A stretch of DNA of 63,290 bases, counting the filler, from Hausera hauseri (taxonomy: Eukaryota), in NCBI GenBank assembly GCA_046269625.1. It is 12 parts of 12 records of this genome, joined end to end, with 100 filler letters (N's around TTAATTAATTAA, not from the genome) between each part and the next. Parts side by side here need not be neighbours in the genome. Positions count along the whole stretch, not along the records: positions 21,248 to 31,205 come from JBJURY010263287.1; 11 more parts are not named here. The stretch is one strand, 5' to 3'. Shown here in pieces: positions 13,421-49,919 of this stretch. Numbering within the stretch: the stretch's first letter is position 1; each line of letters begins with the position of its first letter. The position numbers and the translations under genes are program-made. The notes under the pieces were generated by a model, which was not told where the DNA came from, ran no database searches, and was given only the letters and a program-made list of their open reading frames with translations.

Positions 13421-14815
13421 ATGTATAAGGGGGTACTCATATATGAGAAATCGATTGTCATTGTTAGATTTTTCGAATAGTTCGAACTTCGGTATTCGAG
13501 CTCGTAAATATTCGAATTTCAATTATCTGACTTGCGATTCGAGATCGCCATATTCGACTTCCTATCGGTCCCCGCTAATTATAATATCGAATTTTCAGTG
13601 CTAGGGGCAAATAAAACCTCTGGGAAGTCTGCATCAGTTGCACTTTGGATCGATATTATTCGAAAACTAATCGATAAATTTAAATTCTAACTGCACATTC
13701 ATATACTGCTCCATGTTTGTGTTCAAATGCACCCTGTCACATGTCCTAATCATCAATATTGAAAATATTGGAAAACCGATATTATTGATTTTTGCACACT
13801 TGCACATGTGTTTTTGCACTGTACAGTATATATTAAGGTACTTCTCGATGCGCTCTACCTATCTGCACTTGATCCCAATGGATTCCATCAATCCTCCGCT
13901 GCACAGTGATAAATATGTGAAAAGTAAAAAGTGCCTTAGCAACCGTATCCAAGAGCACACTTGAATCGAGTATTGCACTGAACGATAGTACATCAAGTAC
14001 TGCACCCGCCCGTATATGTGCCATATTGATATAATTGATTTTCATTTCATAGCGGAAAGTCCTATGGGAAGTCTACCTCAATTGGCAATTATTCAAAAAC
14101 CAATCAATATATTTCAATCCTAACTGCACATTCACACAGTGCATCATATGTGCATTCGATTGCAGTCGGTGCCGGGTGCTAATCATCAATAATGGAATTA
14201 TCGGAAATACGACATTATTGATTTTTGCACACTTGCACATGTGCAACACACCTGCACTGTGCACCAATCGATGTGGACTGATGTGCACTATCGATTAGCA
14301 CTTTGTCCCGATCGATTCGATCAATTGCGCAATATGCAGCTATCGATTTGTCAAATGTGCACTGACGCCTAGCACACTGCCGATCGATGGTGCACCATGT
14401 GCACTATCGATTGGCACAAGCGCAAAATTGATTTATGGATTTTTCCACCCGGTGGTGAGACAGACTTCCCATTTTTACACTAGATGAACCTATGTGAATA
14501 TTTTAATTCGTATAATGTCTTTCGGTTTTCTGGAAAGCGCTCATTACGTTCATAAAATTTCATCAATATCTAACCTACACAACCAAAGTTGTAGAGTACA
14601 GCATTTGAAAACAGAAGAGTTTATTTCACTTTGAATTGACGTTTTATTAGGATTTAGATATTTAAAAATTCACAGCACCTATATGGCACATATTTTGAAC
14701 ATAAAAGTCATATCAGGAGATAGAAAATTAAATTTTCTATAAGATAGCGATTGAAAATTTTAAATATTACATTTTTAACAAAGTTTTTATTGATGGAAAA
14801 TATGTTTGTTCCATT

Positions 14816-15030: not shown

Positions 15031-15615
15031 CCATGTGTAAGTGTCACTTGTGAAAATGTCTCTGTGGTTTCAAGGACATGTGTAGTAATTTTATTAGAAA
15101 AAAATCCAAATCATATATTACGTGTCCAGAAAAATTTTAATTTCATGTAGTTCTTGGATAAACACCATAGATGTAAAGGGTAACTATGACATCTTCAGTT
15201 CTATCAAAAAAAAATTGACATCATATCATATGGATGATGTTTTTATCTCATTGTAAGAGCCACAGATTCCAGCAAACAAAAATAGTCGGAACTGATCATA
15301 AATTGAACGCTGCTTAGCAATTCATTGGAGACTACACTAAATCACAACCCTCTCAGCCAGTTGGAGAGAGCGAACTGCATAATCTGTGTTTAAAGACTAA
15401 CAGCTATTAGTCTTACTGGGAAATGGGATTTTAGATTAAAACTCAGCCCTGGAGAAAACAATCTGTACTTGATTTGTTTAAGCTCCTGAAGTCATAAAAA
15501 ATGTGTCTGTGGCCTCTCTTACTCATGCTCCTTAAAGTCAGTTTCTGTGTTTATCTTTTGTTCCACTCACAGAAGAAGCGGTGACAGAATCTTTTCTTGA
15601 TTTCGTCTTACACAC

Positions 15616-16047
15616 CTGAGCGTCAAGGATCCGGACGCTGTAGAAGAGCCAGTAGGAGACGACAAGGAGAAACACCAGCACGGCCAGGAGGACCTGGAAC
15701 ACAAAGACGCGCGGGAGTCCGGCCCGCGGCGGCCTGAAGAAGAGCGCCCAAACGGCGAGCAGCAGGATGAGCAGCTTGAAGGCCACGGAGATGAAGAGGC
15801 CCTCGCAGGCCGTCCCGCAGCTCTGCAGCTTCTCCGGCCACAGGATGCGTGGCAGTGTGAGGAAGGCCAGCGGCGTGAGGAACACCAGCAGGCCCAGGAT
15901 CACAGCGATGGTCCGGGCGAAGTATCGGCGGCAGTCGAGCCCCACGCTGTCCTCCAGGTCCTTAGTGATGCGTACGATGTCCTCCTGAGAGAGGCTGTGC
16001 TCCGACGTGCCGGTGATGGCCGTGGTGGTCTCGCCCCAGTTGTCATC
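15616..16047 (-). CDS. vangl1: Internal exon of vertebrate (teleost-like) Van Gogh-like protein 1
   Basis: [67 protein letters not shown]. ttcttccag acceptor at 16048, GT donor at 15615, 432 nt with phase 0/0, strongly GC-rich codons. Confidence 0.9.
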
Positions 16048-16952
16048 CTGGAAGAAACCAGAACAGATGATTCAGCCATGAAGCTTGTCCACAGGTTAAC
16101 TTTGATAAAGAGCATTCTGGTGTTTGAGACCAGTGATGNNNNNNNNNNNNNNNNNNNNNNNNNNNNNNNNNNNNNNNNNNNNTTAATTAATTAANNNNNN
16201 NNNNNNNNNNNNNNNNNNNNNNNNNNNNNNNNNNNNNNACCACAATGAAGTTGCATTAGAAAGACATATCGCAATAAAGTTGGAACAGAAAGAAATATTG
16301 CAATAAAGTTGGAACAGAATCAAATATCACGATAAATCTTAAGATGACTTAAAAAACTTTTTTCAAATGAGTTTTATTTTGTACAAAACAGAAAAATCAA
16401 ACGTATGATTCCAGACATAATTTGCTGTACAGTATTCAGGGAAGAAAATCTGAAGGCTGAATTGGCTTGCAAATCGTCCGCATATGGATCTTCTTGCAAC
16501 AATGAGAGAATGGAATCTAAATCATGTAAATTAATAACAATAAAAGACACATTAGCAAAAACTGACTTCAAACACTGCCAGATTTAAACGCAAGTTTAAA
16601 AGAAGAGATTAGAAATGACTATTTAATCATATTTCAGTTCACTACAGCATGTATTACACTTTTCAAAGACTCATAAGTGACAGAGTAACACAAGAAGGAA
16701 AATTAGTTGATTGTGCCAGTGATGACTAGTGACAAAACATAAGTATCAAACAGTTGAGATGGACCTGGTACTTGTTTTAACAAATAAAAAAACGTTGAAT
16801 CTTGTGCCAGGATGGTGGATTACGTCCACAGAGATCTTGAAATACGTAGATTTCGTTTAGTTGATATCTTAGAATTTCACAATCTTAGTTTACGTATGCG
16901 TGTTTCATCACGTCCACTGGAACACTTAAAGATAATAATAATATGTACATTC

Positions 16953-17180
16953 AGTAGTGTAGAAATGGCGGTTCAGTCCCATTTCGGGAAGGGAGTAATC
17001 GATAAATCGATTTTGCACATGTGCCGATCTATAGTGCACCCGGAGCACTATCGATCCATAAAGTGCTAGGCAACGGTTCCGTTTGGCACCGTTGCTAGGG
17101 GCACTTTTGCATATTTCACAAATCGATCGCTGCACAGTGCAGTATTGATCGAATCGATCGGGATAAAGTGCTAATCGATA
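16953..17180 (+). repeat. Repeat A terminal fragment
   Basis: Begins AGTAGTGTAGAAATGGCGG and carries the same hairpins as 1-423. Confidence 0.8.
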
Positions 17181-17600
17181 GAGCGACTCCATAACTGCGA
17201 TAGAAGCGTTCTCCGTGCTCATCGCTGATTTCGCCGAAATTGTCAGGAAAAGTCGACATGCGAATCGAGGAAATGTGTTTTGAGGGACATGTTAGTCCAT
17301 AATTCTGTATGAATCTACGCACTGTTTAATATTACGAACATAGTCGATAGATTTGTGATTTCCCAGAAAATTATCGACGACTGATTTGAATGCCATCCAT
17401 GCACGAAGTTCGCTACCGTGTAACAGATTTTCGAATTATTTGTCTGCAATAATTTTCCTAATCTGAGGTCATACAAAGATACCTTCCTTTATATTTGCAT
17501 CACTAACTTGTGGAAATCGTTGTCGAAAACTTTTGTTGTATCTAGCGCTTTTACGCAATTCTTTATGAGCCGAAACTATAATGTGGTAATATAATGTTCT
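17181..17600 (-). mobile_element. Chapaev3-like transposase relic
   Basis: RFPQVSDANIKEGIFV*PQIRK..AWMAFKSVVDNFLGNHK..FPDNFGEISDEHGERF. Confidence 0.7.
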
Positions 17601-19129: not shown

Positions 19130-20950
19130 GACCTCAACAAGGCTCTCAGATGGCGCAAGACAAAATCCCGAATGGTGGCGCCGTCGAGATGAGGCTGACG
19201 CGCCCGATTGTGTCCGGCCGAAAATAGGCCAGGGTTCCTCAGCACACGAAGAACACCACATCACCTCCCATAGCAAAGTGTAAACTGTGATGGGTAAAAC
19301 AGATGTAAAACAAAAACGCCAAAAAAGAAAAGTGTGTTTTTAGTTAGTCTTGGTGTGGACTAGACGTTGAATGCCTTCTACTGATTTCCAGTGCTATAAG
19401 TGCTAAATGTCTCTCTTCGTGCTTTATTTGTGTGCCTTGTGATTGATTGCAGCGTTGTGCGTTGTGGTAGAAGGTCTGCTGAATATCTGGGCTCATTGTT
19501 TAATGTTATTTATGTTGATGAGAGTGAAGATTGCGAAGAAAGATTAATTGAATGCGAACCAGAAAGGAAAGATAAGGTAGGCTTGTGAGATTAAATATTT
19601 GATGAGGACTAATGATCGATTCATAGTGAGGTGGAGAAGAATCAAGAGACTAAGGGTTTGATGATGGCTGAAAAAAGGAATCAAGAAAAATTATTATGAG
19701 GTGAAACAAGATCGTCCAGTTTGTCATGGATAAACAATGTCGGTTTAACGTTGGTGATATGTACAGAGCATTCTTTACCATTTTTGAGCATTGTGGTGGA
19801 TAGGATGTTTCGCTATCCAAGTAAAATATAAGGTAAAAAGTTTGTCTAGTGTGGCTTGGATTGTGCTAGTACTTTAAGGGAGTTTTCAGTAGCCCATTCG
19901 ACTGGAAGTGATAAAGTGTTATGTGGATATGCTTGATACTTAGTAAATTTACGAGTGATTTAAATAGATTCAAATCAAATTGGGGGCCCTGGTTCGAAAT
20001 TAAATGCCCAGATGAGCCGTATCTGCTGGGCCAGGTGCGTATAACCATATCAGCAATGATTTCAGTGTTGGTGGAATGGAATGGAACAGCTTCTGCCCAT
20101 CTAGAAGCACAGTCCATTATAGTAATGATAAACTGATGGCCACCGTCTAATGGTAGTGGATCAACTATGTCAATGCGGATTATGTCAAAGGGAAAATGAT
20201 AGAGAGGCGAATTGAGGTGTTTTCTGCTACTTTAAGCTTTTGACATGCCGTACACTCCCTAACTCAAGCCTGCACGTCCAATCTTATTGATGGCCATGTG
20301 GCGTGGAGTTTAAGAAGACGATAAGTATCTTTGGATCTTGGGTGATGCAATGAATGAATTCTGTTGAATGCATTTTTGCAAAGTAGGAGATAAAATGATT
20401 TTAGTGAATTCGGCACTGGAGGTGTCCAAAGCTATGTCATCAATAATTTTATAAGATTTGAAGTGGAGAGAATAGAGTCATCTGGCTGGTTCCGTCTGAG
20501 TAACTCGTTGTCAAAAATGTGTGCAAACATAATCGAGCCGGTGGAAGGCGATTAAAAATCAGCCACTATATTATCAACCCCTAAAATGTGTTTCATATCA
20601 AAAGCTAACATTGACAAGTATGAAATCTGTTTCTCGTGATGTGTAAACGGGGGTTTCTTAGTAAGAATGTGAAGTAAGGGCTTATGGTCCGTTTGTGTGG
20701 TAAATGTACGTGAAAGCAGAAGGCGTTTAAAGTGCTTTATTGCTATGACCATAACAAGTAACTCCCTATCGAAAGGGAAATAACGTTATTAGGTCTTTGT
20801 GAATTTTCGTGCGAAAATTTCCTGAGGTTGATGAGATCCGTCCTTGAAATGATGGAATACTGCGCCTGCTGTTGTAGTGGATGCGTCTGTTTTTAGAAAA
20901 ATTTCCGAGTATGGCTCAGGATATGCAAGAATTTCCACAAATTTTAGACA
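19130..20950 (-). mobile_element. Gypsy LTR retrotransposon relic (RNase H, integrase, PPT, start of 3' LTR)
   Basis: LKTDAS..FDRELL..AIKHF..TDHKPL and DCASRWAEAVP..SNQGPQF..HFQSNGL. GGGAGGTGA|TGT at 19260. The LTR's far end is uncertain. Confidence 0.8.
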
Positions 20951-21741
20951 ATTAATCATAACAAATAGTATCCGCTGTGTCGTTGAAGAATCGCAGTATT
21001 GAATACTGAATGATTCATAAATGAGATACTATGAGCTACATCTTAGTAGCAACGTTTTAAATTGTAAGTTCAACAATTTCATAAATGTATCAAATGGTAC
21101 AATAACCGAAATCAAATTAACACATCAAACGCAAATAGTGCGGTACCNNNNNNNNNNNNNNNNNNNNNNNNNNNNNNNNNNNNNNNNNNNNTTAATTAAT
21201 TAANNNNNNNNNNNNNNNNNNNNNNNNNNNNNNNNNNNNNNNNNNNNAGGTGCCAATGTCGAATTCTGTATGGAGTCTTGATAAGGAATTGCAGACTTTA
21301 CAAATCTCTCTCAACTTTCGACCGTCACTCAATATTCAATGACAGTAATATTTATGAAAGAATTATTAGGTTAACAGATGTCATTGATCATGGCATGACA
21401 TAGTCCAGATCCTCTCTCGCTTCACTTAGGAACAAAAATGTGTGAAACAAGGATGTGTTGCTACATTTGTTGGGCACTTACAAGAGTCGTTCAAGGCTTA
21501 CTGACTAACGCTAGAAAGATTAAATTTGTGGTGCATGTAACCTTGTTGAGTAAAAATGGTCATGTATAACGTCTTCAGCAACAATGGCAGCGAGCTGTAT
21601 CTCTATACATTGCCTAAAATTATTATCTCCCTTCGATAATGGAACTAACAAAACATCAGGAATGCAAGCATTGTGTATTAATCCATTCATACGTGAGTGT
21701 GTTTATGCCAGTATCAGGCTCATACTAATTTGTAACCAATA

Positions 21742-23162
21742 AGTAATGAGTTATGCAGAGTTAGGTTAGTATTTCAGATGTTAACAAACGAATAAAAAGG
21801 ATTAATTCACGCGCAAGATGGCGGCGGGGTCACGTAACGGGTACCTGGGTAGATAAGGGGATTACCTGGGAGATAAGTGGGCGATAATTGTAGTTGATAG
21901 ATACTGTGTTATATAATGTTAGGTTTGATAGGTGTCTGTAGTTGTGTATTGTTACGTAAGTAAGCGTACCCATGCAGGAGGCGTGATCGGTAAGGGGGAG
22001 ACAATTTTATAAAATTTTATTATTATTAGATTTTTATGTAATATGGTGATTTATGTTGTTGGTTGGGTACTGTTTTTTTTTCTTCTTGATGTTGTAATGG
22101 TGAGCTAGTTTGCTACCTGGGTAGATAAGAGGGATTAATTTAGGCGCAAGATGTCGCATGAATGAAAAGGGAAAGACAATTTAGAGGTGGAATGACTTAC
22201 ATAAGATTTAATTCAGGCGTGTATAGACAAAGAGGATTTAATTCAGGCGCAAGATGGCGGCTGAAGGGTAAGGAGAGACAATTTTGAGGTGGAACGACTT
22301 TTATATAAGACTTAATTTTGGCGTGTATAGACAAAGAGGATATAATTCAGGCACAAGATGGCGTCTGAAGGGTAAAGGGGAGATAAGTGTGAGGTTAGAG
22401 GTTTTTATATAATGATAATTCAGGCGCAAGATGGGGTCTGAATTTAAGGGAGATAAGTTTGAGGTGTAGAGGCTTGATATAAGATTTAATTCGGGTGCAA
22501 TATGGCATCGCGTCTGAAGGATACTGGAGTAGATAAGGGGAGTTCATTTTGGATATCAGGGTGAGCATAATTGCCTTGTAGATAAGTGCTCTGAGTACGG
22601 ACACCAAACATGATAAGAGATAGCAAAATACAGTGTAGTTCGACTGGCGTGTCATGGTGGTTATTCCTTGTAACTGTATACTTTTATAACATACACACAT
22701 ACACGCATACTTAAATACAACAAAATGCCGATTTATTTACAGTGTGTTTTATTTACGTTAAAACCTTTTTGAGTTTAAGCTTTCTGCGTAGTTTCTTTAT
22801 TGGTCTCTGTACAGGTTTGACTCCCATTGTTGCATCATCATCATCGTGCATTGGGACGTGTAACTGTTCATTTGATGTTCTGTGCGCTGACTGATCAATG
22901 ACGATACAAAGTTCTGTAAATAACCGTTAGTTGGGCTTTGTGCAGACTCGTCATACACTGATGAAAAGGTCTGCATATGATTGCTTTGCGTGGCTGTCTT
23001 GTCATAAAATGGTAAAAAGTTATGTAATGGCTCAGTGTCAATGAACGACATAAGTTTTGTCAGAGGCTCGGTTTGCATGGCCACGTCTGTTATTGCGTAT
23101 TGTTCTAGAACGTCTTTTGGAACTGTTATGTAGTTGATGACAGATAAAATGTCACTCTGCAC
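21742..23162 (+). repeat. Left TIR (~1.4 kb) with subterminal repeats
   Basis: Reverse complement of 29186-30919. Repeated ATTCAGGCGCAAGATGGCG units. Confidence 0.9.
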
Positions 23163-23372
23163 GGCAACGAGTAGTTCAATCTCTTCACGAGTTAATGAAT
23201 TTACTGTTTTCGTTGGGAACTTTTTGTAGCTTTCACCAAAGTATCTTCAAATATGCACCAACACTTTCTTTCGATACGAGGAAACTATAACTAACTTGGC
23301 TGGACCTATCGGTTTTGCCAACACAGCATCCCCAGTTATGTAGACACTGTTATCAAACCGTGTAAACATCAT
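22797..23372 (-). pseudogene. PC4/Sub1-like ssDNA-binding domain protein
   Basis: IGPAKLVIVSSYRKKVLVHI*RYFGESYKKFPTKTVNSLTREEIELL resembles the PC4 pattern V.V..F.GK..IDIR.Y....P..KGISL..EQ. One in-frame TGA. Confidence 0.65.
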
Positions 23373-23399
23373 GAAAACAGAAAGATCCTCTAGGTGTGT

Positions 23400-23917
23400 G
23401 TGATTTGCTTATATACCGTTATAACCAGGATAACCTGGATGTATGTTGTCATAGCTATTTATACAAGTCTGGTTTCTCCGCAACCAAATGATTCTATCGT
23501 TGACGTGTTGTCTCATAGACATAAAGGACATGAGAACACATCGCATGTAGCCCCTCTGGATTTAATGAGGATGAAATAAATGACATAGAGTCCACAATCA
23601 TTACTAAAAAGGCCTTGTAAGGGACGTGCATTATAGACGAATTCTCCATCAGAGTTACACTTAATAAAATCATCAATGTCAGTGTGGAGTGGTGGAAGTC
23701 CAAATAAATCCAAATAGTGAAATGTGCCAATGCCGTCATAGTACAAGGCTACCCAGTGTGTACTGTGTAGGTTTCTGGAATCTCTATTTATGACAAAGGC
23801 TGCCGGTTTTGTTGGATTGATGCGTTTGAATAAAATGTCATGGGGCACAACTCTGATGGGATGTCGGTGGACGAAAATGTCAGAGTGTAAAATTGTTAGT
23901 ATTTGTTCAGTGTTCAT
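23400..23917 (-). pseudogene. Adenain-like cysteine protease (Polinton PRO)
   Basis: VINRD..STHWVALY..YLDLFG..PLQGLFSNDCGLYVIYF (His/Asp/Gln/Cys catalytic pattern). Confidence 0.88.
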
Positions 23918-23922
23918 CTTTT

Positions 23923-25209
23923 CTAGGCAGGGTAATCCATTAACACTTGTCTGGTTTTGGAAATTTCAAATATAGAGTCTTGTTCCGCATACACAATGAC
24001 TTGTAAGGGATGGGGTGTCATGGAGGAAAATTTAAACTTCAGTGAAAGAGGTCTATTTTTCACAAGTTCAAACTGGTCCTCACCCAAACGACTGGGACTT
24101 AATACCAACGCGGAAAGAGCGTAACCATTTTTAAAATGTCTATAGTTGACTTTGCAGCCGGCATCCTTACTGATCAGACCCATGGCTAGATTGGTTCTGA
24201 AAAAGGCTCGGGCATAATGGTCGCACTTGAAATCCACATGGCCGTTCGCCCATCGACGGTGACGTTCAAGTACATCAAACCAAAAAGTTGAAAGTTGAAC
24301 GGATTATTTCTGTAGGTGCCATTACAAGCCGAGGAATTTACTATTCCAACCATGATGCGAGTGGGCGTTTGACTGCGGAAAAAATTGTCTCGAATTTGCA
24401 ACAACATTCCTTTGGGTATGGACAATGTCTTTATCATGACTCGTTTGATGGAATATTTTGCGGTCGAAGTAGTCAAGGTCTTTTCGTGGGCCAGAGGAAT
24501 GGCCGGATTTAATTAGGCTTTCCTGACAACAGGATGCCAAAAGTGATAACTGATTTATAACCGAACAAGGGATCATCTGATATGAAGTTGAACGCGTCTT
24601 TAGAAGGGGTGAGTTTGATCTTCACGTGCACTCCGTTCAGTATGTAATGGTCATGGCTAAAAATGTTGCAGTGTAACTTTCCCATCATATCCACTTCTCA
24701 ACTACTGCCGGCCAACTCCTGACGCGTTTTTAGTCCGACGTTAGAATCGCCTTTAGCTTCATCAAAATAATTTGGCATGTCGTTGTAAAATAGTGCCGCT
24801 GTCAGTTTACCCCTCTTCGCTTCCTGACAGTAATTTAAAGTGGCTTAGAGGTAATATCTGTAAGGGTACGTGTTTTCACTTGGCATGATTAACGCGTCGT
24901 TCAGGGTGACGTCCACTTGTGAAAATAAACTGTATGTAATTATTGACTGGGGCCACTTCTGCACCATCTGGTAAATTATCACCATTGGCCAAAGTGACTT
25001 TGGCCCGCATGTGCAGAAAGGTATTAAACAAATCTAGATACTCTTTGCAGCTTCCAGATATAAATTCTATGGGCGCCACGGGTGTGAGATAAGTGAGAGT
25101 GAATTTCCACAAACTGACCTTCCTCTATCGCCGTTTGTGTTGGAGGAATACTAAACAAATCCAAACCAGAATGGAAGCATTTACACGAACTGGGGTGAAT
25201 CAAAGCCAT
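23923..25209 (-). pseudogene. Polinton major capsid protein (double jelly roll), frameshifted
   Basis: SGLDLFSIPPTQTAIEEG, YLDLFNTFLH, GKLHCNIFSHDHYILNGV, NPFNFQ, VIVYAEQDSIFEISKTRQVLMDY. Confidence 0.88.
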
Positions 25210-25229
25210 GTCTTTAATCAAAATATCAG

Positions 25230-25688
25230 CATACTTCCTTCCTCACCGTTTCTTGGACTAGTTGTGAGAACTACTTGCGGTCACTGTCGGTTTTATTCTT
25301 CTACTAAATGGTTTGTTGGGCGGTGTGGCTTTTCTTTTATGATGCATGCCATCAACCATTTGGTTCCCCACAACATGATTCACTGCACCTTGCAACAGTC
25401 TCTGTCCGGCCACTTTGGCTCGATCTCTAAATGATTCACCAACGTTTTGACCAGTTAACGCTTCCTGGGCCACTTGCAAACTCGTTCTAATCCCTTCCCT
25501 GATATAGCTTTGCCTCCAGGCTTTAACCACCGGAAGATCATTCGACCCAATCTGCTAAAGAAACTATCAATGCCTCTTCCACGTTGACTTCTGCCGACGA
25601 CAAAAACGGGAATTCCGTCTCCGGCTTGACTACGGTAAAAGTCTTCATAAACCTCGGTGCTTCGATGTAAAAGAGTGTGTCTGACCAT
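25230..25688 (-). pseudogene. Small basic Polinton core/virion protein
   Basis: YEDFYRSQAGDG..QRGRGIDSFFSRLGRMIF (xGxG followed by an amphipathic helix). Lies immediately upstream of MCP. Confidence 0.65.
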
Positions 25689-25691
25689 CTT

Positions 25692-26440
25692 TTATTGCAA
25701 ATCAGAATGTCTCCTAGGTCGAAAATGTAACATCACCACCGAAGAGCCGTTTATAAATGGGATCTTTTGTCCCAGGTCGTTGGTTAAAAGTATTTCCATG
25801 GTGTGAAAGGAAAATCGACTCAGTGGCAGGTAGTGGGGTTTGTCGTAAATCCGAAACACAGAGGTCAAATTTCTATCCAAAACAGGCACAATGGGTAACA
25901 AAAACACCATGACATCTCTGACGGGTCTCGCTGCAATGATATCGCAGTACACGTAAACGTTTCTTATGTTGCTTGTCAAGATTCAACTGTGCTTTACCTA
26001 TTGAAGCGAGTCCTTGTCTGTTATATGGTTTTTGATAGTCCCAATATATTTTTCAACTTTTCGCTAATGATAATGTCCGCACTCGACTCGAATCTTTCCA
26101 GTCCGGTGGTTTTCTGTGTTTTATGGTAATGGATTTTCAACGGCACCAATTTGGCTCCTTTCACGCGTGAAATTAATTCAACAAAGGATTGGCTGGCGAC
26201 TTGTAGAGTTCAGGACTTATTCGTAACTTAAAACGATGGCTTAGTGCTGTTTATGTGCGGAAGGTAATGTAACCACACTTCATTCTCTAGAACGTTAAAG
26301 TAACTGTTTGGGAATTAAATCTCCATCAAAACGACCTCGTAATTAAAAGTTTATTCTGTGGTTTGTGGGAGTTTCACGTAAAAGTTATCCGGAAACGTTT
26401 TCATGAAGGCGTTGCTCGGCAGCATCATGTAAAAACTCAT
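25692..26440 (-). pseudogene. Putative Polinton minor capsid (penton) protein
   Basis: MSFYMMLPSNA..FPDNFYVKLP N-terminus; VYVYCDII..LLPIVP..PHYLPL..EILLTNDLGQKIPF..MLHFR C-terminus. Confidence 0.7.
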
Positions 26441-26699
26441 ACTCACATTCAGATCTGCAGATTAGGTAATATATAACCCAAACAAGTGGAGAGCAGAACG
26501 ACCCATAACTTATTGTCGTCGTTACCATAAGAAGGTTGAATAGCAACATGGAGATGATGATATATATAACCAACAACTGTGAGATGAAAACACCTCTACG
26601 CGTGAATCAGTTTATCAAACCAAAATCAGGAAATGGGCCTCTCTCTTCGCTTAGTTTCCGCATTTTGTTCTTGCTCGGGCATGCTAGTCTTTATATCTC

Positions 26700-27712
26700 A
26701 AAATGTGTTTTCCCAAAATCTGACTGTTGAATGACGAATTATAACCAAACCATTTCACTAAATATTCTTAACTGCCCGCCGTTCACCTTTCTCACATAAT
26801 GTTTTCTGTTCTGTAAACTACATTCTCTCTGACTTTCTGGAGCTCTTCTTTGTAAAACAAGCCTCACAGTTCCTCGCCGGCGTCGTCTTTGAGCACATAA
26901 GTTATTTGACTTGTCCCATTTACTTTGCTGATGGTAAACAATTCTTCCGTCCAAGCTGGAGTGTAGCCTTTTTAAAAGGTTGTCTGTTATGTCCAACTCA
27001 GACATGGTCCCCTTCCGTAAATGCTTTTCTGCCGACGGCGTCAGAGGCTGAATACAAATTGTTCCACACTTCTTCTTGATTGTCAAAATTAACTTGCACT
27101 GGGGCCATGCAAATGCTTCTATGATAAGAAGGGTTGTAATTTAGAATCAAATCGTCTATCACGTCTACGTTTTGGTAAAGTATCACCACATTTTTTCTTT
27201 TAAGGTTTGGTTAAAATGCTCCACGACAGCCACCTTAACGTCTTCATTTTCCATAGTGAAGAAATGCACGCCTTGGTCTTTGAGAAACTTGAGGAATGTT
27301 TTGTTGAGAAATTCGCTTCCTTTTCAGTTTGTAACGCAATAGGCTACAGTCAGACAAAAATTTTGCTCATGGCCTCCACCAGCTCCTTGCCGGTTTTCTT
27401 CTTTATGGGAAAAACCCAAGCATATTTACCAAACACATCTATAAACGTCACTAGATACGACAACCTGTAGTTGTATGTTTTTAATGCGTGCATGTATATC
27501 AGATCAGGCTGAAGCTGGTGACCGATGCCGCTCATTATTATGGGTCGCAAAGTAAATTTGTGACAAACGGGTTTTAAGAGTATAATCAACTTGGTGACTT
27601 AACCATTCATTAACTTTCTTAGCCTCGATTTTTGTAGTGTGATGTAATGCCACAACACCAGAAAAAGCACCCGAATGCTACGGGTCATATTAATGTTTTC
27701 GTAAAATCTCAT
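26700..27712 (-). pseudogene. Retroviral-like integrase (Polinton c-INT), possibly with C-terminal chromodomain
   Basis: HQLQPDLIYM..YLVTFIDVFGKYAWVFPIKKKTG and LILNYNPSYHRSICMAP. Confidence 0.88.
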
Positions 27713-28222
27713 TTATTTTGTGGACCATGTTTCCCAATTGGGCTTGTTTTTTTCTTTATGCCGTTTCTCAGGTTATGAAACACGGATATTCTTGATCTCC
27801 TTTTAGTAGAGGAGGGCGGTGTTTGCGATATTTTAGTAACAAGTATCGGCGATTGAGGTCTTTTGGTACTGGTCATTGACGCTTGAGGCATTTTAGTAAC
27901 GGTCATCAGGGATTGCAGAATTATATGCGAGACTTCGTCTTTAAGTACAGTCAGCGAGATGTCATTGATGGTTGGGGAAAGCAGCGTTGTTTCCTTGATG
28001 TCCACTACCCCTAGAGATTTGTGCCTGTGCTGTTCTAGTCTAGTCAAATAACGCTGCAACGTTTGTTGATACAATCTGGCTTTGTCTCGTGGCGATAAAT
28101 CGTCTCTTTCCAAAATTCGTTGTATTTCATAATCCGTATCGGAAATTGTCGCTCGTGGCGTCGGGTGGAACGTATTGCTTTTGGTTCATAGTCTCTAAAA
28201 ACCGCGGGTCCATCAAAATCAT
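27709..28222 (-). pseudogene. Conserved Polinton hypothetical protein
   Basis: DYEIQRILERDDLSPRDKARLYQQTLQRYL motif; positioned between the small virion gene and INT. Confidence 0.55.
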
Positions 28223-28231
28223 TCTCCTGTT

Positions 28232-28511
28232 TTAAAAACCCAACACGCCTTTCACCATTTTCAGTATAGGATCCAATAAAGCTCCTAGGAAACCTCCTTG
28301 TTGGAGAATCTGTTTACGTTTTTTGATCAACGGGTTCTTTTTGGTTAGTTTGCGCAGACCCGTTTTGTAACGACGCAAACGACTCTTCTGATCCTGAATG
28401 AGGGGAATGTAACCTTTTTACACATTGTAGCAACACTCGCACAGCGCTCGCATGAGATTCGGGGACGCCGATTTCATTACAGCCTTTATGTCGGGTAAGC
28501 GTGGAGTGCAT
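28232..28511 (-). pseudogene. Small Polinton protein with basic stretch and QGGFLGALL tail
   Basis: CECCYNV*KGYIPL..QKSRLRRYK..KKRKQILQQGGFLGALLDPIL; possible adenain xGG cleavage site. Confidence 0.6.
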
Positions 28512-29118
28512 TTTGGGATGTACACGATGTGTCTCTCATGAAGTAATATAGCGCTACATTACCTTAAATTGTAGGGTGTTTCCTAACGAAAATCGAGTAA
28601 CAAATAACCTTGAGGTTTCGATGTCGTAACCTTAAAATTGTCTTGTACATATGAACTACAACCTGGGTACATCTGATTGGCCAAGTTGATAATCTGTGAA
28701 GCATCTTTGGGTTTTTTAAAATGAGGTAATGGGAATTTAAGCTTGTGATACGGTGTTCCTTATTTATTCCAAAAAGGTTTTTGATAATGTACACGATGCT
28801 GAGATTCCGGTGATGACTTCCCTTTGTAAAAAGTTTGGTTACTCGGTCGTCAGTTTCGGTCATCAGGTCGTCGATGACCACTAACCGTCTCTTGTCTCCT
28901 TACCATTGTTCCACGTCTGGAAGACATTCAATAAATTGCACGTCTGTCATCTTTTCGTACACTGATTGCCACTCCTCATGACACCATATAATCTCCTCCA
29001 TCACGGGACGACCATGTCTGGAAGATGCGCTAAAAACTCACGCACAAAAATGGTTTTTAGTGCTGCCGATCGGTCCCACTATAAGGACAGTAATAGGATG
29101 TTTCCACCCATGATCCAT
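28510..29118 (-). pseudogene. A32-like packaging ATPase (Polinton)
   Basis: HPITVLIVGPIGS.KT (decayed Walker A); LVVIDDLM (Walker B); LFTKGSHHRNLSIVYI; ITSLNSHY. Confidence 0.9.
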
Positions 29119-29185
29119 ATTCTATACTGTTGTGTTCCTATGCCCCTTATAAATATATATTTCAAAGAAAAGACCGGGTCGGATA

Positions 29186-30919
29186 GTGCAAAGTGACATT
29201 TTATCCACCATCAACTACATAACAACAGTTCCAAAAGATGTTCCAGAACGATATCCATTAACTGACACGGCCATGTAAACTGAGCCTCTGACATACCTTA
29301 TGTCGTTTGTTGACACCGAGCCTTTACAGAACTTTTTACCATTTTATGATAAGTCCACAATGCAAAGCAATCCTATACAGACATTTTCACCCGTGTACAA
29401 GTCTGCACAAAGCCCACAAAATGGTTATTTACAGAACTTTGTATCGTCATTCGATCATTGAGCGCATAGTACATCAAATGAACAGTTACACGTACCAACG
29501 CACGACGACGACGATGCAGTCGTGGGAGTCGAACCTTTACAGAGACCAATAAAGAAACAATGCAGAAAGCTTAAACTCACAAAGCTTTGTAAGTTTAATC
29601 GGCATTTTGTTGTATTTTAAGTATGCGCGTATGTGTGTATATAAAGTAAAGTCCATTGTACGCGCCTCTGAAGGCGTATAGGCAAATTTGGAGTTAGTGT
29701 CCACATATTTTCCTAGACATCAGCAGATAATTGGGCCATGTTGTCAGCATAATGCCAGGCAGCCCTTACTTTCCCAGAGAATTTCTCTGGTACCCATTTT
29801 TTAGGCTGGGTGGGCCCCTGGAGCCGTTTTTGATTTAATTAAAATTCAATGCCTACAGCTGGTATTAAACCCGTAACCACACAATTGGCAGACGAGCGCA
29901 CTAACCACAACGCCACCGTTGCTCCATGTGTGTCTATGTGTGTATGTTATTTATAAAAGTATATAGTTACAATGAATAATCACCATGACACGCCAGTCCA
30001 ACTACACTGTAATTTGCTATATCTTATCAAGTTTGGTGCCCACAATCAGAGTGCTTATCTACAAGGCAATTACACTCACCCTGATATCCTATCTGTTTAC
30101 GAATCAAAACAAGCTCCCTTTACCTACTCGAATACCCTTCAGACGCGACGCCATCTCACGCCTGAATTAAATCTTATATACAGTCTCTACACAGTCTCTA
30201 CACCTCAAACTTATCTCCCCCTTACCCTTAAAAAGCCATCTTGCGCCTGAATTAATCCTTATAAAAAAGCCTCTACACCTCACACTTATCTCTCCCTTAC
30301 CCTTCAGATGCCATCTTGTGCCTGAATTAAATCCACTTTGTCTATACTCGCCTGAATTAAGTCATTCCACCTCAAAATTGTCTCCCTCTTACCATTAAGC
30401 CACCATCTTGCACCTGAATTAAATATCTCTATGTCTATATACACCTGAATTAAATCTTATATAAAAGTAATCCCACCTCCAAACTGTCTCCCCCTTACTA
30501 TTCATGCAACATCTTGTGCCTCAGTTAATCCCCCTTACCCACCCCGGTAGCCACCTATACTACCATTAGAACATCAAGAAGACAAAACAGTAGCTAACCA
30601 ACAACAAAATCACCATATTACATAAAAATCTAATAAAAAAAAAAATTTATAAAATTGTCTCCCCCCTTACCGAGCACGCCACCTATCCGGGTACCCCTAC
30701 TTACGTAACAACACACAACTACAGACACCTATCAAACTATATTATTATATAACACAGTATCTATCAACTACAATTATCGCCCACTTTTCTCCCCGGTAAT
30801 ATCCTTATCTACCCAGGTACCCGTCACGTGCTCCTGCCGCCATCTTGCGCATGAATTAATCATTTTTATTCCTTTGTTAACGCTAGAAATACTAACCGAA
30901 ATCTGCATACCTCACTACT
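29186..30919 (-). repeat. Right TIR (with SINE insertion)
   Basis: Inverted copy of 21742-23162, including the 3' part of the PC4-like gene (..MQSWESNLYRDQ). Confidence 0.9.
29643..29925 (-). mobile_element. tRNA-derived SINE
   Basis: Absent from the left TIR. A-box-like TGGCGTTGTGG, B-box-like GGTTTAATACC and CTTTA tail. ~12-bp TSD ATGTGTGT(A/C)TAT at 29631-29642 and 29926-29937. Confidence 0.8.
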
Positions 30920-31849
30920 CCAATAGTGTATTGTAATTTTTTATTGTTAGGTCAATATTGCCTACATTCCTAATGAAGCTTCTTTTGCAATGCCAAGTGG
31001 AACGCAACTTAACCAAGTACCACGTGGATCGCTGCTCCTGTTAGATCCTATGGCATCGGCCCCTGGAAACAGGTACAAACTGTCCACGGATATGGTAGAG
31101 GAAAACATTGAGAATTTACAGTCCTCCCAGGTGCCAATGTCGAATTCTGTATGGAGTCTTGATAAGGAATTGCAGACTTTACAAATCTCTCTCAACTTTC
31201 GACCGNNNNNNNNNNNNNNNNNNNNNNNNNNNNNNNNNNNNNNNNNNNNTTAATTAATTAANNNNNNNNNNNNNNNNNNNNNNNNNNNNNNNNNNNNNNN
31301 NNNNNTTTATGAGGTGCACAAGCATCATCTCGGACCGTTTACTCGGTCTAGGAAGATGATGGTTATGCATTGCCCTACATACCCACGCTACTGCAATACT
31401 AAAGTGCACAACATTAGTGGTTGTCATAGTGCAATGGAGCAGTACTATGGAACCACAACGCTGCACAATGAACGGGCCTACTTTTCTCCCCGTTGTTCAA
31501 TAGTTGCTGAAATCAACTATGAATAATTCTATAATATGCACAAGGACCACTTAAACTAGTTTAAGCGGTCGAAAAAACAATTAGTTATGGATTCAACTAA
31601 AAGCAGCAGCATCCCCTCAACAACCAGTAGGAGACGTCAGGCCTCAACAAGTCTTGACGACTTAATCAGAAACAGTACCGAGTAGCAGCAGCAACAGAAG
31701 CAGCAGGAACAGCATCAAAAACAAGAACAGGAGCAACAGGAAGCCAATATTCCAATTACAGTCAAGTATGATCTGAACTGATCGTACATGGACATAAAAG
31801 TGAACATGTCGGCGAAAACAACAACAACGCAATTGAGACATGTTCCGCA

Positions 31850-34800
31850 AAATGTGCGCCACTGGTTGGAATCAGAAGTAAAGAAATTCTAACACAACTG
31901 CAAAGTGCAATATTATGCACTGGCAGAATTTGAAAATTTGGAAGGTTGCAGGAAACAATGGTATCTGTCACATCGAGCTGTACCATACCGCGGAGATTTA
32001 ATTGCCGATGTAAGCGAAAAGCTCGAGGAGAAAATCTCCAACTACACGGAAAAGGGTAGTGGATGGCGAATTATAAAAATTGTCACCCTCAGCTTTATTA
32101 TAAGAAAGTCGAGTGACATAAAGTATTTGTCTGGCCGATCATTCATACCGACAACTGTAGTTTTAAAGCAGTCTCTGGCGGTAGTGAATGTAAAAAATAC
32201 TAACGATGAATACTGTTTTCTATACAGTATTCTGGCGGTATTGAAATATGACGAAGTGGACAGACATAGCGCATATAGCCCATAACAGTATCAGAAATAA
32301 TTTTCCGAATTAAATTACAATGGATGTTGGATGCCGATGAAACTGAAATCCATTCCGGAATTTGAACGGCGTAATCCGGCACTGGCAATCAACGTGTTCC
32401 GGTACAACACAATAATAGAAATACCGGCGGATGAAGAAATTTACAAAAATCCTCATGTGGATATAATCTATTGTAGTCAGAACCCAAGTGGCCGCTCAGT
32501 AAATTTGTTGTTATTGGAGCAAAAAGAAAAGTATCATTACGTTGCAGTGACAAATCTGGATATACTGCTGAACATGGAACATGACCACTTCTTCAAAAAA
32601 CGGATACAATGTAAATGGTGTCCTGTATGTCTGCATGGATTCAGATCAGAAACAACATGGGCGAAACATGTAATTCTGTGCAGACAAAATTCGCCAGGAA
32701 CCACAATGTATGTCATGCCCGTCAAAAAGGAACTCAGAGTCACCGATTGGTTAAAAACAGACAGTCCGGCATATGTAGTATATGCCGACATCAAAGCTAT
32801 CTTACCACGCCACAACATATATGACCAAAAATGTTCCAATCGCCGTCGGTATATTGGTTGTCCCAATAAAAGCCGCAAGTCAACCTCAATATTATATTTT
32901 CCACGGATGGAATTGTGTACACGGTTTCTTGCAGTAGTTGCAAACCATAGTGGAAACTGAAACCGCACCGTGGTATTGCGATAATAGCACCAAATCTCTG
33001 ATCTTGACAGATGAAGATGAACGCCTGACGCTTGCAGTCACAGACGAATGTTACTTATGCCACAAAATATTACCGTTTGATGCACAGGAATGGCTCGTAC
33101 TGGATCACGATCATTTTACCGGTCGATATTTCGGAGCCGCATGTAATTCATGCAATTTGACAAGGCATGTGCGGCCATTCCTACTGGTGATCTTTCATAA
33201 CTTCAGGGGTTAATACTGTCACCATATTATAAAATGGACCATAAGCGGCTTTCCGCACTGGGAATTATCCGTAATTCAGACTACGATGGAGAAGTACCTG
33301 TCCCGGTTCAAGGTTCGATTCCTTGATTCGTTGCAGTTTCTAAATGAATCATATGCAAAGCTGGTGAATGTCTTGCCAGATGTGCCGCTAACATTGACTC
33401 AGTTCCCTGTATATATTGTGCGTAGCAAAGGTATTTTCTCGTATGACTTTGCGATATCGTACGAGCGGCTCCAGACGACAGACAAATTACCACCACAATC
33501 GCCCCGTATAACAGAAGAAGAATATCACAAAACATAGTCTTTTTTGGCAGAGCTCGGCTGCAGAAACCTGTTGGAGTAGATGCTTCAGTATCTGAAATCG
33601 AATGTGTACTTATTAGCCGATGTGTTTCAGACATTTCGAGCTAAAGCGTTGACAGAAGATAGGTTGGAGCCACTTAACTTTTACTCAATACCCGGAATGA
33701 GTTGGCCAGGAGCTCTGATGCCATTGGATCGGGATATTGAACTGTTGCAAGACCCGGAAATATACCGACTGTTTGATGTTGGTATTCGTGGAGGCATGAC
33801 ATTTGTCAACAAGCATCACGTTACCAGTGATGATACCACATCACTGTTGTATATCGACATTAATAAACTGTACGGCTGGGTGTTTACGCAACCCTTGCCG
33901 TACGGTTTATGCAAATGGATAGTCGACAAACAGGACTTGGACACAATACTGGAAAATCTGCCGAGAGCAGACACAACAGAAAATATCTCAATCGGATACT
34001 TAATGGAAGTTGATCTCGTGGTACCAGATGAGATGCATGACTTTCTTGATGAATTACCGATCGCACCAATTAACTAATGTCTACCGGGCTCGAAGGTGAA
34101 GAAGCTGTTTTGACGCATGAACCTAAACAAAATTACATAGTTCATCGGCGTATGTTACAATTTTACATGCAGCTCGGTGTGCGCATCGCACAATTACATC
34201 ACGCAATCCGATTCGCACAGGTTCCGATATTCAAGCGTATATCAGTCGGAATTTGAAAAAACGAGCTGCAGCTTGTACACAATTTGAAAAAGACTATTAC
34301 AAACAGAAAAACAACTCCCTCTACGGAAAAACAGTAGAGAATCTGAAAAAGCGACTCAATGTACGTCTATGCAATAGCGAAAAGCGGTTGGTCACGTACA
34401 CGAGTAAGCTGCAGTTCAGGCGATTAATGTACATTAACGATGAATTGGTTACCGTGCTTTTAAACAGGGAAGAAGTCGCACTGGACCGGCCATGTTATAT
34501 AGGACAAGTGGTATTGGATGTGAGAAAGTTGCGAATGTATGAGTTGCGGTATCGCGATTTGGCGCAATACCGACAAATGTTCGGCGGATGCTAGATCAAT
34601 ATAATTGCCTGTGGCACAGATAATTTTTTCTTGGAACTGGGAAACGTCAATCGCGAACAACTACTATGGCAAATGATAGCAGACAGATTAATGGACACGT
34701 CCAATTACCTACAGAATCATCCATTGTACAGCAAAGCCATCACAAACAAAATCGGCTGCTTCAAGAATGAAAGTGAAGATCGAGTTCACTATCGGGAATG

Positions 34801-35110
34801 GGTATTTTTACGGCCAAAATGTTATAGCCTTTTAACTGACTGTGGACCGAAAATGCGCGCAAAAGGAGTTCAGCTTGCCCAGACGGAAATAAACCACGGT
34901 GATTATCGCCGTATCTATGAAGGAGGGGCAGAAAACGGTGGAGCAGAAGGATAATCAAAGACTGTTGTGTCTCAAACGATCATCTGATCAATTGAGCGCC
35001 AGCTGAATACGATAACGAATACAAAAATCGCTTTATCATGTAACGATGATAAGCGTAAGAGGGTGGGGCGAAATAAGAGTTCGATGTACGGACATTGGCG
35101 TTTGGAATAA
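31850..35110 (+). pseudogene. Polinton protein-primed DNA polymerase B with Zn finger and endonuclease VII-like insert
   Basis: GSGW..VVNVKN..YCFLYSI; CPVC..H...C; VVYADI; DHDHFTGRYFGAACNSCN; FHNFRG; GIRGGM; YIDINKLYG; KQKNNSLYGKT; LRPKCY; KIALSCNDDKR. Many lesions. Confidence 0.92.
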
Positions 35111-35349
35111 AACACACACGCATAAATTCGGTGCTGATGATATAGAGAGATCAAAGTGACCCATTTACTGTGACAATTCATTGTTATCTGTTTTTTGTAT
35201 CAATAATGTATATTGTTCGTTGCTTTTGCCTTTTGTTTTATTATTATTTAATCTATCTCTATATATTTATGTATTTAACTAAATGTGACGAGAAACAATA
35301 TCAAGCACAAAATCAATAAATTTATTAATCATAGTCTAAAATCAAAAAA

Positions 35350-35770
35350 CAAAGTAAGTCAAGTCAGCGTAAACTTTCCGAACTTCCATATTGGTGATTT
35401 AACGCCGTGCAGATCCTTGTATCCTTTTAACTTCAATGTTAGATAGCCTTCAGCTCCTTCCGGTGACAAAANNNNNNNNNNCTGCTGTTTCTCCGCCATG
35501 TGAACTTATAATTTTCTTTATATTTCCCTTGAGAAAAATCGGTAATGTATCTCGGATATCGTTACTCAACACCAAATCACTGTCAACTTTTCTAATTGTG
35601 TCTCCCATTGTATCCAAATCATCGTCGTTGATCTTTTTCACCAATAGACCATATTTCACCGGTTTATTTTGACTGTTTGCGTCAATGGTAATTAAATAGC
35701 GTTGCGCAGATACTGTAAGTTATATCCTTTATACAACCGGGAATTTCTGAGCGAATATTCGCTGTACCAT
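35350..35770 (-). pseudogene. Unknown small gene convergent with pPolB
   Basis: Broken ORF ..KYGLLVKKINDDDLDTMGDTIRK..; AT-rich convergent intergenic region at 35110-35350. Confidence 0.35.
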
Positions 35771-36432
35771 GGCTTTTGTGAGAGACTCGCGGAACTGTCA
35801 CCTGCTGAATTGTTTTTAAAAGACACTGTTTAGAGACAAACGTGAAATGAAATTGCATCCATATTTAAATCAAATTTGTTCACACCGGTTTGTTTTCATT
35901 GTAAACAAGAGACATTTACCTTATGAGTATTGTCTCATATCACAATGATACATATGGTCTCATCACAATTATACATACTAGTTAAAATTATCTCCACGTC
36001 ATTAAAGCCCATGACACTATTTTGTTCTGTTATTGAAGTCATTCGTAACAAATGTGCACAATTTCCATTATAGCACATTTACATTCTGGACATTGGGTTA
36101 CTTTGGAACGCATTTGAAAACAACGAGATGGCCGCACATTAGGCATACCGTATCCGCTTTTCTTTGTTTACATAGTACACATAATCTGATAGTCTCGTAC
36201 TTTGTCCATTATTTTTTCCTTCAAGTTCTTTAATTGACCGCGTACCTTTTCAACAGTATTAAAGTAATTTGTATCATACAATTGGTGAATGTACATTTGA
36301 TTTAACACAATAATTAGATTTTCTATAGAGCTNNNNNNNNNNNNNNNNNNNNNNNNNNNNNNNNNNNNNNNNNNNNTTAATTAATTAANNNNNNNNNNNN
36401 NNNNNNNNNNNNNNNNNNNNNNNNNNNNNNNN

Positions 36433-38163
36433 CCATCCCAGTTCTATTCCGAATGCCTTTTGCAGGTCCACACCACCTATTATTTCTGGGCGTAATTCCG
36501 ATACTACCAGAAATGTCACACGTCTCCTTAGACCCTTGATTTCTACATCTGTTGTCAGTGTGCCCAGGCAATCTAAGGGGCTATTATTCGCACACCGTAG
36601 TGTGGTATCTGATTTCTCTATGTGTGTTTTTGCAAGTTCATCCACGGTCTTCTTGCTTATGACGTTTACCCTGGCCTCTGTGTCCAATAAGCAATCTGCC
36701 CATTTGTCTTGCATCATTCATTTGATTCCTGGTCGACCATTAAACTTCCTGTATCATATCTGTTCGACATACAATTTGTCTAGCATGAAGATCTGCGTAT
36801 AGTTCCCACTTTCCTCCATTTCGTTGGAGGATACTTCCTGGAAATTTTCCGTTTTTATAAATTTCCGTACTTTTTCCTCTTTCCTTTTATCCATCACTAT
36901 ATCTACGTGTCCCCTTCTTGATCCGTCTATACTGTTTGATATAATATTACTATTATACATCATGATATTTTGGGAGCCTGAATCTATTGTAATGCCCCGA
37001 CTTGCTCAACTTTTACCGGGGGCTCTGCATTTGGGGAAACTAACTCCTGTTCCGATTCTGTTTCCTTTTCCTCTACGTTTGCGATGTCCCCCCGTCTTCT
37101 GTTCAGACTATCTCCATACCATCTTTTCACTTTGTATATATCCCATCCTGGTTCTGTTTTCCCCTCCAGCCTGGTGTAGCACACCTTTTCGGTATGCCCC
37201 TATGGTGGCATCTCGCACAGCTAAGGTTCGTACAATTTCGTCTGATGTGCCCTAGCTGACCACATCCGCAGCATCTTATTGGTTTCCTTTCGGGATACTG
37301 CCTGCTTATGTGTCCTTCTCTTTCGCATCCAAAGCATTTTATCGGTCTCCGTACGATGCAAGATCTGCTCGTATGTCCTTCTTTCTGGCATGTCGAACAT
37401 TTTAATCTACTATTTGATCTTCTAGTTGGGGTCGCGTTGATTCTAGGAACAGGTGTCTTGATATTTTGTGCAGCCACTTCCTGGTAGCTTCTTCTGCCGA
37501 TTCTCGGATACTCTTTAACCGTGTTGACTTCCTCTGTCTTAATCTTTACCTCGTGTATCTTCTGTATTTTCTCCTTTATGGTTTCTGTGTCTCGTTTGTC
37601 ACTGATGCATATCTCTCTTCTCATCTCTCTATCGTTACAACATTGGAACAATAGTTCCTCTTTCAGAGCCCCGCGTGAAAGATTGTGCTTCATGACTTTA
37701 TCCAGAAGTTTTTCGATTGCCTCGAAGTAAGCCTCCGGTTCCGCTCCATTCATTCTGTACTCGAGCGCCTCTTTCAGATCTTCGCACAGCGTTTAGGATC
37801 GGGCGAAAGCCTTCCATAGTCTGTTTTGAAATCCAGTTTTTTTTCGCATCTACTGCCTCGTATCTTTCTTATGCTTCGGCCTTCAAGAGGCATTCAACCA
37901 TGATTTCCAATTTCGTCGCCGAAGTGTTCATAGATTTAACGAATTTTTAACATGCTTTAATGAACTTCGCCACGTCGTCGCCTTTCCTGAATTTGTTGGG
38001 CAACAATTGGTTCGCGAAGATGTTCATTGTGGCGTAAGTCGCCATGCAAGGCTGCGTCAGCATCCACGCCGTCCACATCGTCGCCCCGCTTGGGGAAGAT
38101 TGGAAAATCCTCGCCCCCTGGTATGTCCGCAGAAGCGGAATTAAATCGTTTGTAGTTACTCAT
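36433..38163 (-). pseudogene. Gypsy gag (multiple CCHC knuckles) and aspartic protease
   Basis: CSTCQKEGHTSRSC, CFGCEREGHISRQY and CCGCGQLGHIRRNC knuckles; CLLDTEARVNVI..IIGGVDL protease. Confidence 0.9.
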
Positions 38164-38181
38164 TGAAAAGTTAACACCAAT

Positions 38182-38348
38182 TGTTGAAAATTTTATCATA
38201 ATCCAAACTACTTATTTGGCAACAAATTTTCCAAAATTATAAATTTTAATTGTACTTTTAATATTAAACTTTTAAATTAAATTTTTTGAAAATTTAAAAG
38301 TGTTTCTAATTTAAATTTAGAATTTCCATTCTCGATTATATCCTCACA
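38182..38348 (-). repeat. Single 167-bp LTR with upstream PPT and downstream PBS-like site
   Basis: AAAAAGGGGGA|TGTGAG...TTCAACA|ATTGGTGTTAAC on the minus strand. Confidence 0.75.
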
Positions 38349-47379: not shown

Positions 47380-47460
47380 TAAAGCATAACAATATTCATA
47401 ATCAATTACTTTATATTATTGAGCAGTAGTAGTATGGGAAGAGTGATGCATTAGATTTAT

Positions 47461-48672: not shown

Positions 48673-48709
48673 TTCAATTTTGCAGATGTCATTTATTTAT
48701 CAGTCAATC

Positions 48710-49853: not shown

Positions 49854-49919
49854 GATCTCGATGATGATGGTGATGATGACAAAGATGACGCAGTTTGTTT
49901 ATTATCAACGTTCACGACG

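Follow-up and report, generated by a model that had tools for sequence, protein, structure and literature searches.

The 63,290-nucleotide stretch of Hausera hauseri DNA analyzed here (assembly GCA_046269625.1; hereafter the window) contains, at 21742-30919, a 9,178-bp derivative of a Polinton that integrated as such an element does, lost its DNA polymerase, a protein-primed one of family B (pPolB), carries a right arm differing from the left in the way separate lineages differ, and has undergone long decay. We lean towards a repair event that followed insertion and used a related copy as template, reached through the terminal repeat that both have in common, as the origin of that arm. The element is a fossil, a dead chromosomal copy, because its genes hold stops and frameshifts, its arms are ~88% identical, and one arm has received an insertion resembling a short interspersed element (SINE). 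The window consists of 12 contigs joined by identical N-linkers, and contigs adjacent in it are not neighbors in the genome. It includes a Strabismus exon (E 5e-72) and an Ig I-set exon (15541-16071 and 61966-62754), and the host is therefore an animal.

Ends, arms, and gene content

The element begins with AGTAAT and ends with ACTACT, and the flanking CCAATA duplication matches at 6 of 6 positions, for which the chance probability at the composition of the flanks is ~3.3e-4. Between these ends, the inverted homology of the two arms breaks off sharply at 23162/29186, a limit that lies ~70 codons into the left PC4-like gene, where the PC4-like domain ends; the copy of the gene tail in the right arm has two premature stops. 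The right arm begins 67 bases upstream of the ATPase start. Identity amounts to 834 of 945 columns in the outer part and 391 of 451 in the inner part, with 30 indel events and a longest exact match of 43 bp. The insertion, ~290 to 310 bp and confined to the right arm, resembles a tRNA-derived SINE; searches of it with Rfam and ARAGORN gave no match. Within the arms (21802-22430 and 30160-30860) the motif CAAGATGGCG, which we take to resemble a YY1 site, is repeated in four copies and occurs nowhere else in the window, and TTAATTCA is likewise repeated there. The arm repeat motif retrieved three loci from the GTDB, each matching the 20- to 24-bp motif alone.

Several features proposed in the initial annotation were borne out by these measurements, namely, the AG/CT-type termini, the perfect 6-bp duplication, and an abrupt start of the right arm in the middle of the PC4-like gene, a start that had been placed ~70 bp upstream of the ATPase start. 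Compared with the (AGT)2-type motif of vertebrate Mavericks (PMC8097293), the right end agrees at six of six positions and the left end at five of six. The terminal inverted repeats (TIRs) had been described as ~1.4 kb, unusually long, and including coding sequence. Their length and gene content stand, but they are not clean repeats, given the identity, the indels, and the right-arm insertion, nor is 1.4 kb exceptional, lying at the top of the published range and not above it (46 to 1,447 bp in vertebrate Mavericks, PMC8097293; 100 to 1,500 bp in Polintons, PMC10748475).

The coordinates of all features are collected in Table 1, where Pfam matches given as sub-cut-off scored under the family threshold. 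The packaging ATPase had 214 relatives among 223 candidates (the best at 82% over 65 amino acids), and the top ones carry Pox_A32/Adeno_IVa2. The gene at the PM position matched the sequence that follows the ATPase in one relative, P0163, at 46% identity (E 3e-18). For the integrase, both Pfam matches were sub-cut-off (rve, E 0.0048; Chromo, E 0.011). The last piece of the major capsid gene reached an Atlas feature score of 0.97 to capsid clusters in which 10% of the members have Capsid_NCLDV and 12% DJR-like_dom, suggesting a double jelly-roll major capsid. The remaining capsid pieces, and in part those of the integrase, presumably belong to these genes, as judged from motifs; a PDB search with the capsid pieces was blank. 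A word search for homologues and a PDB search with the protease gave nothing either, and the probable minor capsid gene had no Pfam or NCBIfam match. The PC4-like gene matched Pfam PC4 only at E 0.026 and 14.5 bits, under the cut-off of 25; word and Atlas searches found no true relatives, and the PDB nothing below E 0.3. Its single match in the full library, P0121, was rejected as a repeat protein matching over 30 residues. Among prokaryotic and mobile data sets, 0 of 148 pattern matches of the ATPase alignment in GTDB genomes were confirmed, and the phage and plasmid sets gave no match.

Thus, ATPase, integrase, major capsid, and protease were all identified, in agreement with the virion, integrase, and ATPase gene set first proposed. 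Features of Polinton membership found here are the RVE integrase, the packaging ATPase, the major capsid, the adenain-like protease, and the terminal repeats with end motif and 6-bp duplication; pPolB is missing, and the element falls short of the usual size (about 13 to 25 kb, PMC10748475). It is accordingly filed as a Polinton derivative rather than a complete member. Throughout the element, no polymerase family matched any of 90 open reading frame fragments or any of the six read-through frames, and the genes fill the available space, as the initial statement that pPolB was absent and had no room implied. A comparable fragment scan was able to pick up pPolB, in decayed form, in a different contig of the window. 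The gene order is that conserved in Polintons, pPolB-ATPase-PM-PZ (PMC8097293), with pPolB absent from its slot before the ATPase.

Other decayed Polinton pieces are present in the same window. The contig with the decayed pPolB (31306-36332; PF03175, E 1.2e-4) also carries an Endonuclease_7 match (E 1.4e-7); it does not appear to be the missing piece of the element, being a separate contig with no DNA similarity to it. A second, distant Polinton-like fragment (46247-50656) contains a 411-amino-acid open capsid-like frame (47464-48696) with weak similarity to the major capsid of the element (25% identity over 114 amino acids, E 2e-4), as well as a 30-bp, 90% match to the start of the probable penton gene (49824-49853).

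The junction itself lies ~30 bases past an outward-facing TATAAATA box, near a possible transcript start of the lost gene, a position that may be due to chance. A match of the junction to a host repeat (54 bp at 78%) was rejected, as 1 of 20 shuffles equaled it and the six-copy repeat profile misses the junction. The N-terminal extensions of long ATPase relatives gave no view of the upstream content in intact elements, and a bacterial promoter scan was set aside as inapplicable to a eukaryotic element.

Table 1. Positions in the window of the Polinton derivative, its genes, and its flanks
Feature	Position	Strand	Remarks
Contig holding the element	21248-31205		
Left target-site duplication, CCAATA	21736..21741	.	
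Left arm, 1,421 bp	21742..23162	.	AGT-type end, ~1 kb of non-coding repeat, then PC4-like gene tail
Subterminal tandem repeat	22127..22426	+	Period ~104 bp; mirrored in right arm
PC4-like gene, reads outward	22770..23372	-	Premature stop near 23248, frame change near 22895; Pfam PC4 sub-cut-off
Adenain-like maturation protease, an open piece with a probably damaged end	23513..23917	-	Pfam Peptidase_C5 E 0.0044, sub-cut-off
Major capsid gene, five pieces	23923..25209	-	Frame shifts between pieces at four points, plus additional stops
Small gene in two frames, PW position	25258..25688	-	Position only
Probable minor capsid (penton, PX) gene, broken	25692..26442	-	Position, one gene from major capsid (PMC4028283)
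Retroviral-like integrase with C-terminal chromodomain	26720..27695	-	Several frame changes
Gene at PZ position	27709..28220	-	Position only
Gene at PM position	28232..28540	-	One internal stop; match to P0163
Packaging ATPase	28508..29118	-	Four premature stops, one frameshift
ATPase-upstream remnant, 67 bp	29119..29185	.	TATA-like run TATAAATA at 29148-29155; junction 29185/29186
Right arm, 1,734 bp	29186..30919	.	Inverted counterpart of left arm; begins with PC4-like gene tail minus PC4 domain
Right-arm-only insertion	29643..29929	-	11-bp direct repeats at 29630-29640 and 29935-29945
Right target-site duplication, CCAATA	30920..30925	.	
Terminal 77-base overlap of contig	31129..31205	.	Identical to 21248-21324; probable assembly-graph loop

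Divergence and decay of the arms

Same-molecule copy-back, or a gene lying in a native TIR, would give two identical copies decaying neutrally, for which a ratio of nonsynonymous to synonymous divergence (dN/dS) of ~1 is expected. The two copies of the coding stretch diverged in part while under purifying selection, with a dN/dS of ~0.4 and modest statistical support (P 0.006 to 0.04). Its 126 codons show 17, 11, and 27 mismatches at positions 1, 2, and 3, the NG86 method gave a dS of 0.34 and a dN of 0.12, and a codon model applied to the 124 pairs without stops or gaps gave an omega of 0.415 (P 0.006). Under this model omega was 1.19 and 1.38 when the frame was shifted; on the antisense strand it was 0.52 in register (P 0.051) and otherwise 1.31 and 1.22, and all six frames of the non-coding arm lay between 0.82 and 1.21. 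When CpG changes, other transitions, and transversions were held fixed, the excess became smaller, with 21.5 silent differences against 15.7 expected (P 0.039); it persisted with CpG sites removed (P 0.025), and neutral simulations allowing up to tenfold CpG mutability gave P values of 0.005 to 0.03 in all six settings. Fourfold sites differed more often than non-degenerate ones (11/46 versus 24/236, P 0.015), and the non-coding arm (111/945) agreed with the non-degenerate rate (P 0.57) and departed from the fourfold rate (P 0.021).

Together these tests give a consistent if modest signal, which suggests that ~10 to 12% of the difference between the arms reflects neutral decay, while the extra silent difference would have arisen when both copies were functional in separate lineages. 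These rates would be expected had the outer repeats been the same at insertion, with the inner tract derived from a sister lineage. Given the silent-site excess, the right arm therefore probably derives from another Polinton copy and not from same-molecule copy-back. The initial annotation had the pPolB-bearing arm replaced by an inverted copy of the left end: replacement at the pPolB slot holds, but copying from the same molecule does not agree with a silent-site excess seen in the frame of the gene only. An apparent increase in transitions on the inner side of 22125 weakened when a second aligner was used (P 0.08) and showed no change point, and we claim no crossover there.

The same data bear on a different history, which we regard as rather unlikely, in which long arms bearing genes, with a PC4-like gene close to either end, were native to the parent family, and a plain deletion after insertion took away pPolB together with the first part of the right copy. 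Genes lying within a native terminal repeat should have been the same in both arms when the element inserted, and a silent divergence of about twice the neutral one would require two paralogues beside the repeat that escaped homogenization. On the other hand, the arms diverge evenly over their length, a dN/dS below 1 would result if both native copies had been under selection, and Polintons of Pieris napi have ~2-kb repeats that duplicate hexon and adenain (bioRxiv 10.1101/2025.02.07.637071).

The interior is decayed too. All core genes that could be framed are broken by stops or frame changes, and 15 of the 63 ATPase columns conserved at 90% or more are changed (the median in relatives is 1; columns were defined from 84 near-full-length relatives of 120 listed, themselves in the alignment). 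The resulting decay of ~0.10 per site (interval, 0.05 to 0.175) overlaps half the divergence of the arms (0.06 to 0.07). Decayed fossils make up 96% of vertebrate Maverick loci (PMC8097293).

Origin of the right arm

The duplication of CCAATA records the integration of a Polinton, which would have been full length, into an animal chromosome, and the integrated copy would then still have carried pPolB. A later break or recombination in the polymerase arm may have been repaired through the ~1-kb terminal repeat common to family members, probably with a second, related Polinton copy supplying its capsid-side end as template (the element's own left end being less likely). Copying would have overrun the repeat by ~400 bp, entering the PC4-like gene, and the new tract would have been joined 67 bp upstream of the ATPase, which would have removed pPolB; an inverted insertion nested in the element, with two later deletions, could have led to the same product. 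Thereafter, the element accumulated the neutral decay now seen, ~6 to 7% per arm, and gained the SINE-like insertion. The end product is best read as a dead chromosomal chimera with the layout TIR1-F1...F1-TIR2, by analogy with Galileo. Support for repair after insertion comes from the selection-shaped divergence of the arms, the overlap of ATPase decay with half the arm divergence, the fossil state of most vertebrate Maverick loci, the published parallels in Galileo and mariner, and the other decayed Polinton pieces in the assembly.

Several observations weigh against repair after insertion. The selection signal is drawn from 124 codon pairs, is modest once CpG is controlled, and speaks to the separate lineages of the arms rather than to the place or time of their joining. 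Permutation tests along the arms detected no crossover or change point in divergence (P 0.25 and 0.55), and no donor was found, nor an intact relative or an empty site. The ATPase seems to have decayed a little further than the arms (4 stops versus 1.5 to 1.8 expected; P 0.07 to 0.10, not significant), as might be the case if the element had moved once its interior genes were already failing. Galileo chimeras of two subfamilies have target duplications that do not match, unlike here (PMC3573991), an objection tempered by the fact that an internal conversion tract retains the target duplications. Finally, rearranged Galileo and mariner copies did later multiply (PMC3573991, PMC4161770).

The excess in ATPase decay, although not significant, also fits a polymerase-less genome with two capsid-side ends that formed during replication, either by template switch between two related co-replicating Polintons or by true copy-back, relied on a helper pPolB for its copying, and inserted whole. 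We treat this as a tentative possibility. The layout matches a template-switch product, and both origins, the packaging genes, and the integrase gene are kept. However, only a single copy was observed, and same-molecule copy-back conflicts with the dN/dS between the arms. Panhandle replication evens out viral terminal repeats, as known from adenovirus work, and its repetition should have homogenized the arms. The target duplication had been taken to show that integration followed the rearrangement; it sits beyond the ends of the element and is left intact by any internal event, and thus it cannot order or date the events. Polintons that lack polB and are apparently still mobile are reported in Pieris mannii and another group (bioRxiv 10.1101/2025.02.07.637071), in favor of the proposal. 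The helper or split-genome system first suggested would require several copies that share one junction and finds no support here. In its most specific form, a defective Polinton created by template switch between two co-replicating sub-families, helper-copied, and integrated by its own or the helper's integrase, the proposal appears doubtful, and the element is weak evidence for a helper-dependent virus.

If repair after insertion is correct, the import is small: this is one more decayed Polinton, and a clean example of repair-driven extension of terminal repeats, known in Galileo and mariner, acting on Polintons. It also carries a caution, in that a target duplication around a defective element is no proof of movement in the defective form. 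Should the junction recur at several insertion sites, it would point to replication in trans and recombination between Polinton sub-families, with a bearing on how polB-less Polintons move, a question raised in bioRxiv 10.1101/2025.02.07.637071. A helper-copied defective genome would be the equivalent, among DNA viruses, of the copy-back genome, established in the germ line of an animal, and would hint indirectly at co-infection and complementation among animal Polintons. Loss of pPolB with apparently retained mobility and gene-bearing repeats are not new in Polintons, both being reported in Pieris in the same preprint. We found no publication on arm replacement causing pPolB loss or on a defective-interfering Polinton, in a search that covered the subscription literature thinly and did not include Repbase.

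Genomic setting and comparison with known systems

The contig that holds the element closes on itself, its first 77 bases (21248-21324) being identical to its last 77, and it is the only 1 of the 12 contigs so built. We read this overlap as a loop of 9,881 bp in the graph of a short-read assembly; alternatives are a circle, a tandem duplication, or a repeat flanking the contig at each end. An 85-codon open frame (30951-31205) enters the overlap and had no Pfam or NCBIfam match. Such a contig, and the further Polinton pieces in the window, would also fit a fusion of two Polinton copies into a chimera by assembly or amplification. We consider this very improbable, as the arms share no exact match over 43 bp and so are neither a collapsed nor a fold-back copy, the target duplication matches at all six positions, and a graph of 77-mers would require reads spanning the junction.

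Elsewhere in the window, a remnant of a Monjiviricetes-type viral fusion glycoprotein (10902-11633; PF24664, E 1.7e-11) is probably another endogenous viral element. LTR (long terminal repeat)-retrotransposon remnants with zinc knuckle, protease, RNase H, and integrase lie at 36433-40721 and 19869-20231. A dispersed, internally palindromic host repeat is present in at least seven copies (109-433, 12100-12620, 13769-14489, 16943-17231, and 63144-63290). An array of ~128 copies of a 42-bp unit, ~70% matched, occupies 420-5732, and further satellites are found at 45456-46146 (56 bp) and 51914-54780 (~158 bp).

Copy-back defective viral genomes carry two copies of one end and miss the polymerase, and the element shares with them the derivation of both ends from one parental end as well as the loss of the polymerase. 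Unlike them, its arms show lineage-type divergence, with a silent-site excess (P 0.006 to 0.04) from a modest sample.

Animal Polintons/Mavericks (Polintoviricetes; PMC8097293, PMC10748475) have the same 6-bp duplication, AGT-type ends, long terminal repeats, and gene order (ATPase-PM-PZ and integrase-minor capsid-PW-major capsid-protease), and most of their loci are decayed as here. The element differs from them in lacking pPolB, in its length of 9.2 kb versus 12.7 to 24.6 kb, and in a right arm that is a second left end running into a gene. The polB-less and gene-in-TIR Polintons of Pieris (bioRxiv 10.1101/2025.02.07.637071) likewise lost polB with the repeats kept or have genes duplicated in ~2-kb repeats; however, they are recent and polymorphic, and their polB loss is tied to cargo of long interspersed elements (LINEs) or LTR elements, whereas the element is old and its loss coincides with arm replacement. 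Tlr1 and Polinton-like viruses without pPolB (PMC4028283, PMC11161782) are a further comparison, and Tlr1 resembles the element in having integrase, ATPase, and capsids without pPolB. In place of pPolB, Tlr1 carries a superfamily 1 helicase, while the element has no replacement gene: neither a superfamily 1 helicase match, among the 90 fragments and six read-through frames, nor unassigned room for one was found.

The closest parallels in layout come from cut-and-paste transposons. In the extended-TIR "2RT" copies of Galileo (PMC3573991), an inverted duplicate of subterminal sequence likewise lies inside the opposite repeat and the enzyme gene is lost, and repair on another copy is the route proposed for the TIR1-F1-F1-TIR2 arrangement. 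Miniature inverted-repeat transposable elements derived from mariner, in which the 3' end is replaced by the 5' end (PMC4161770), show the same end replacement with loss of the key enzyme gene. Unlike the element, Galileo and mariner have no capsids; many of their rearranged copies multiplied (PMC3573991, PMC4161770).

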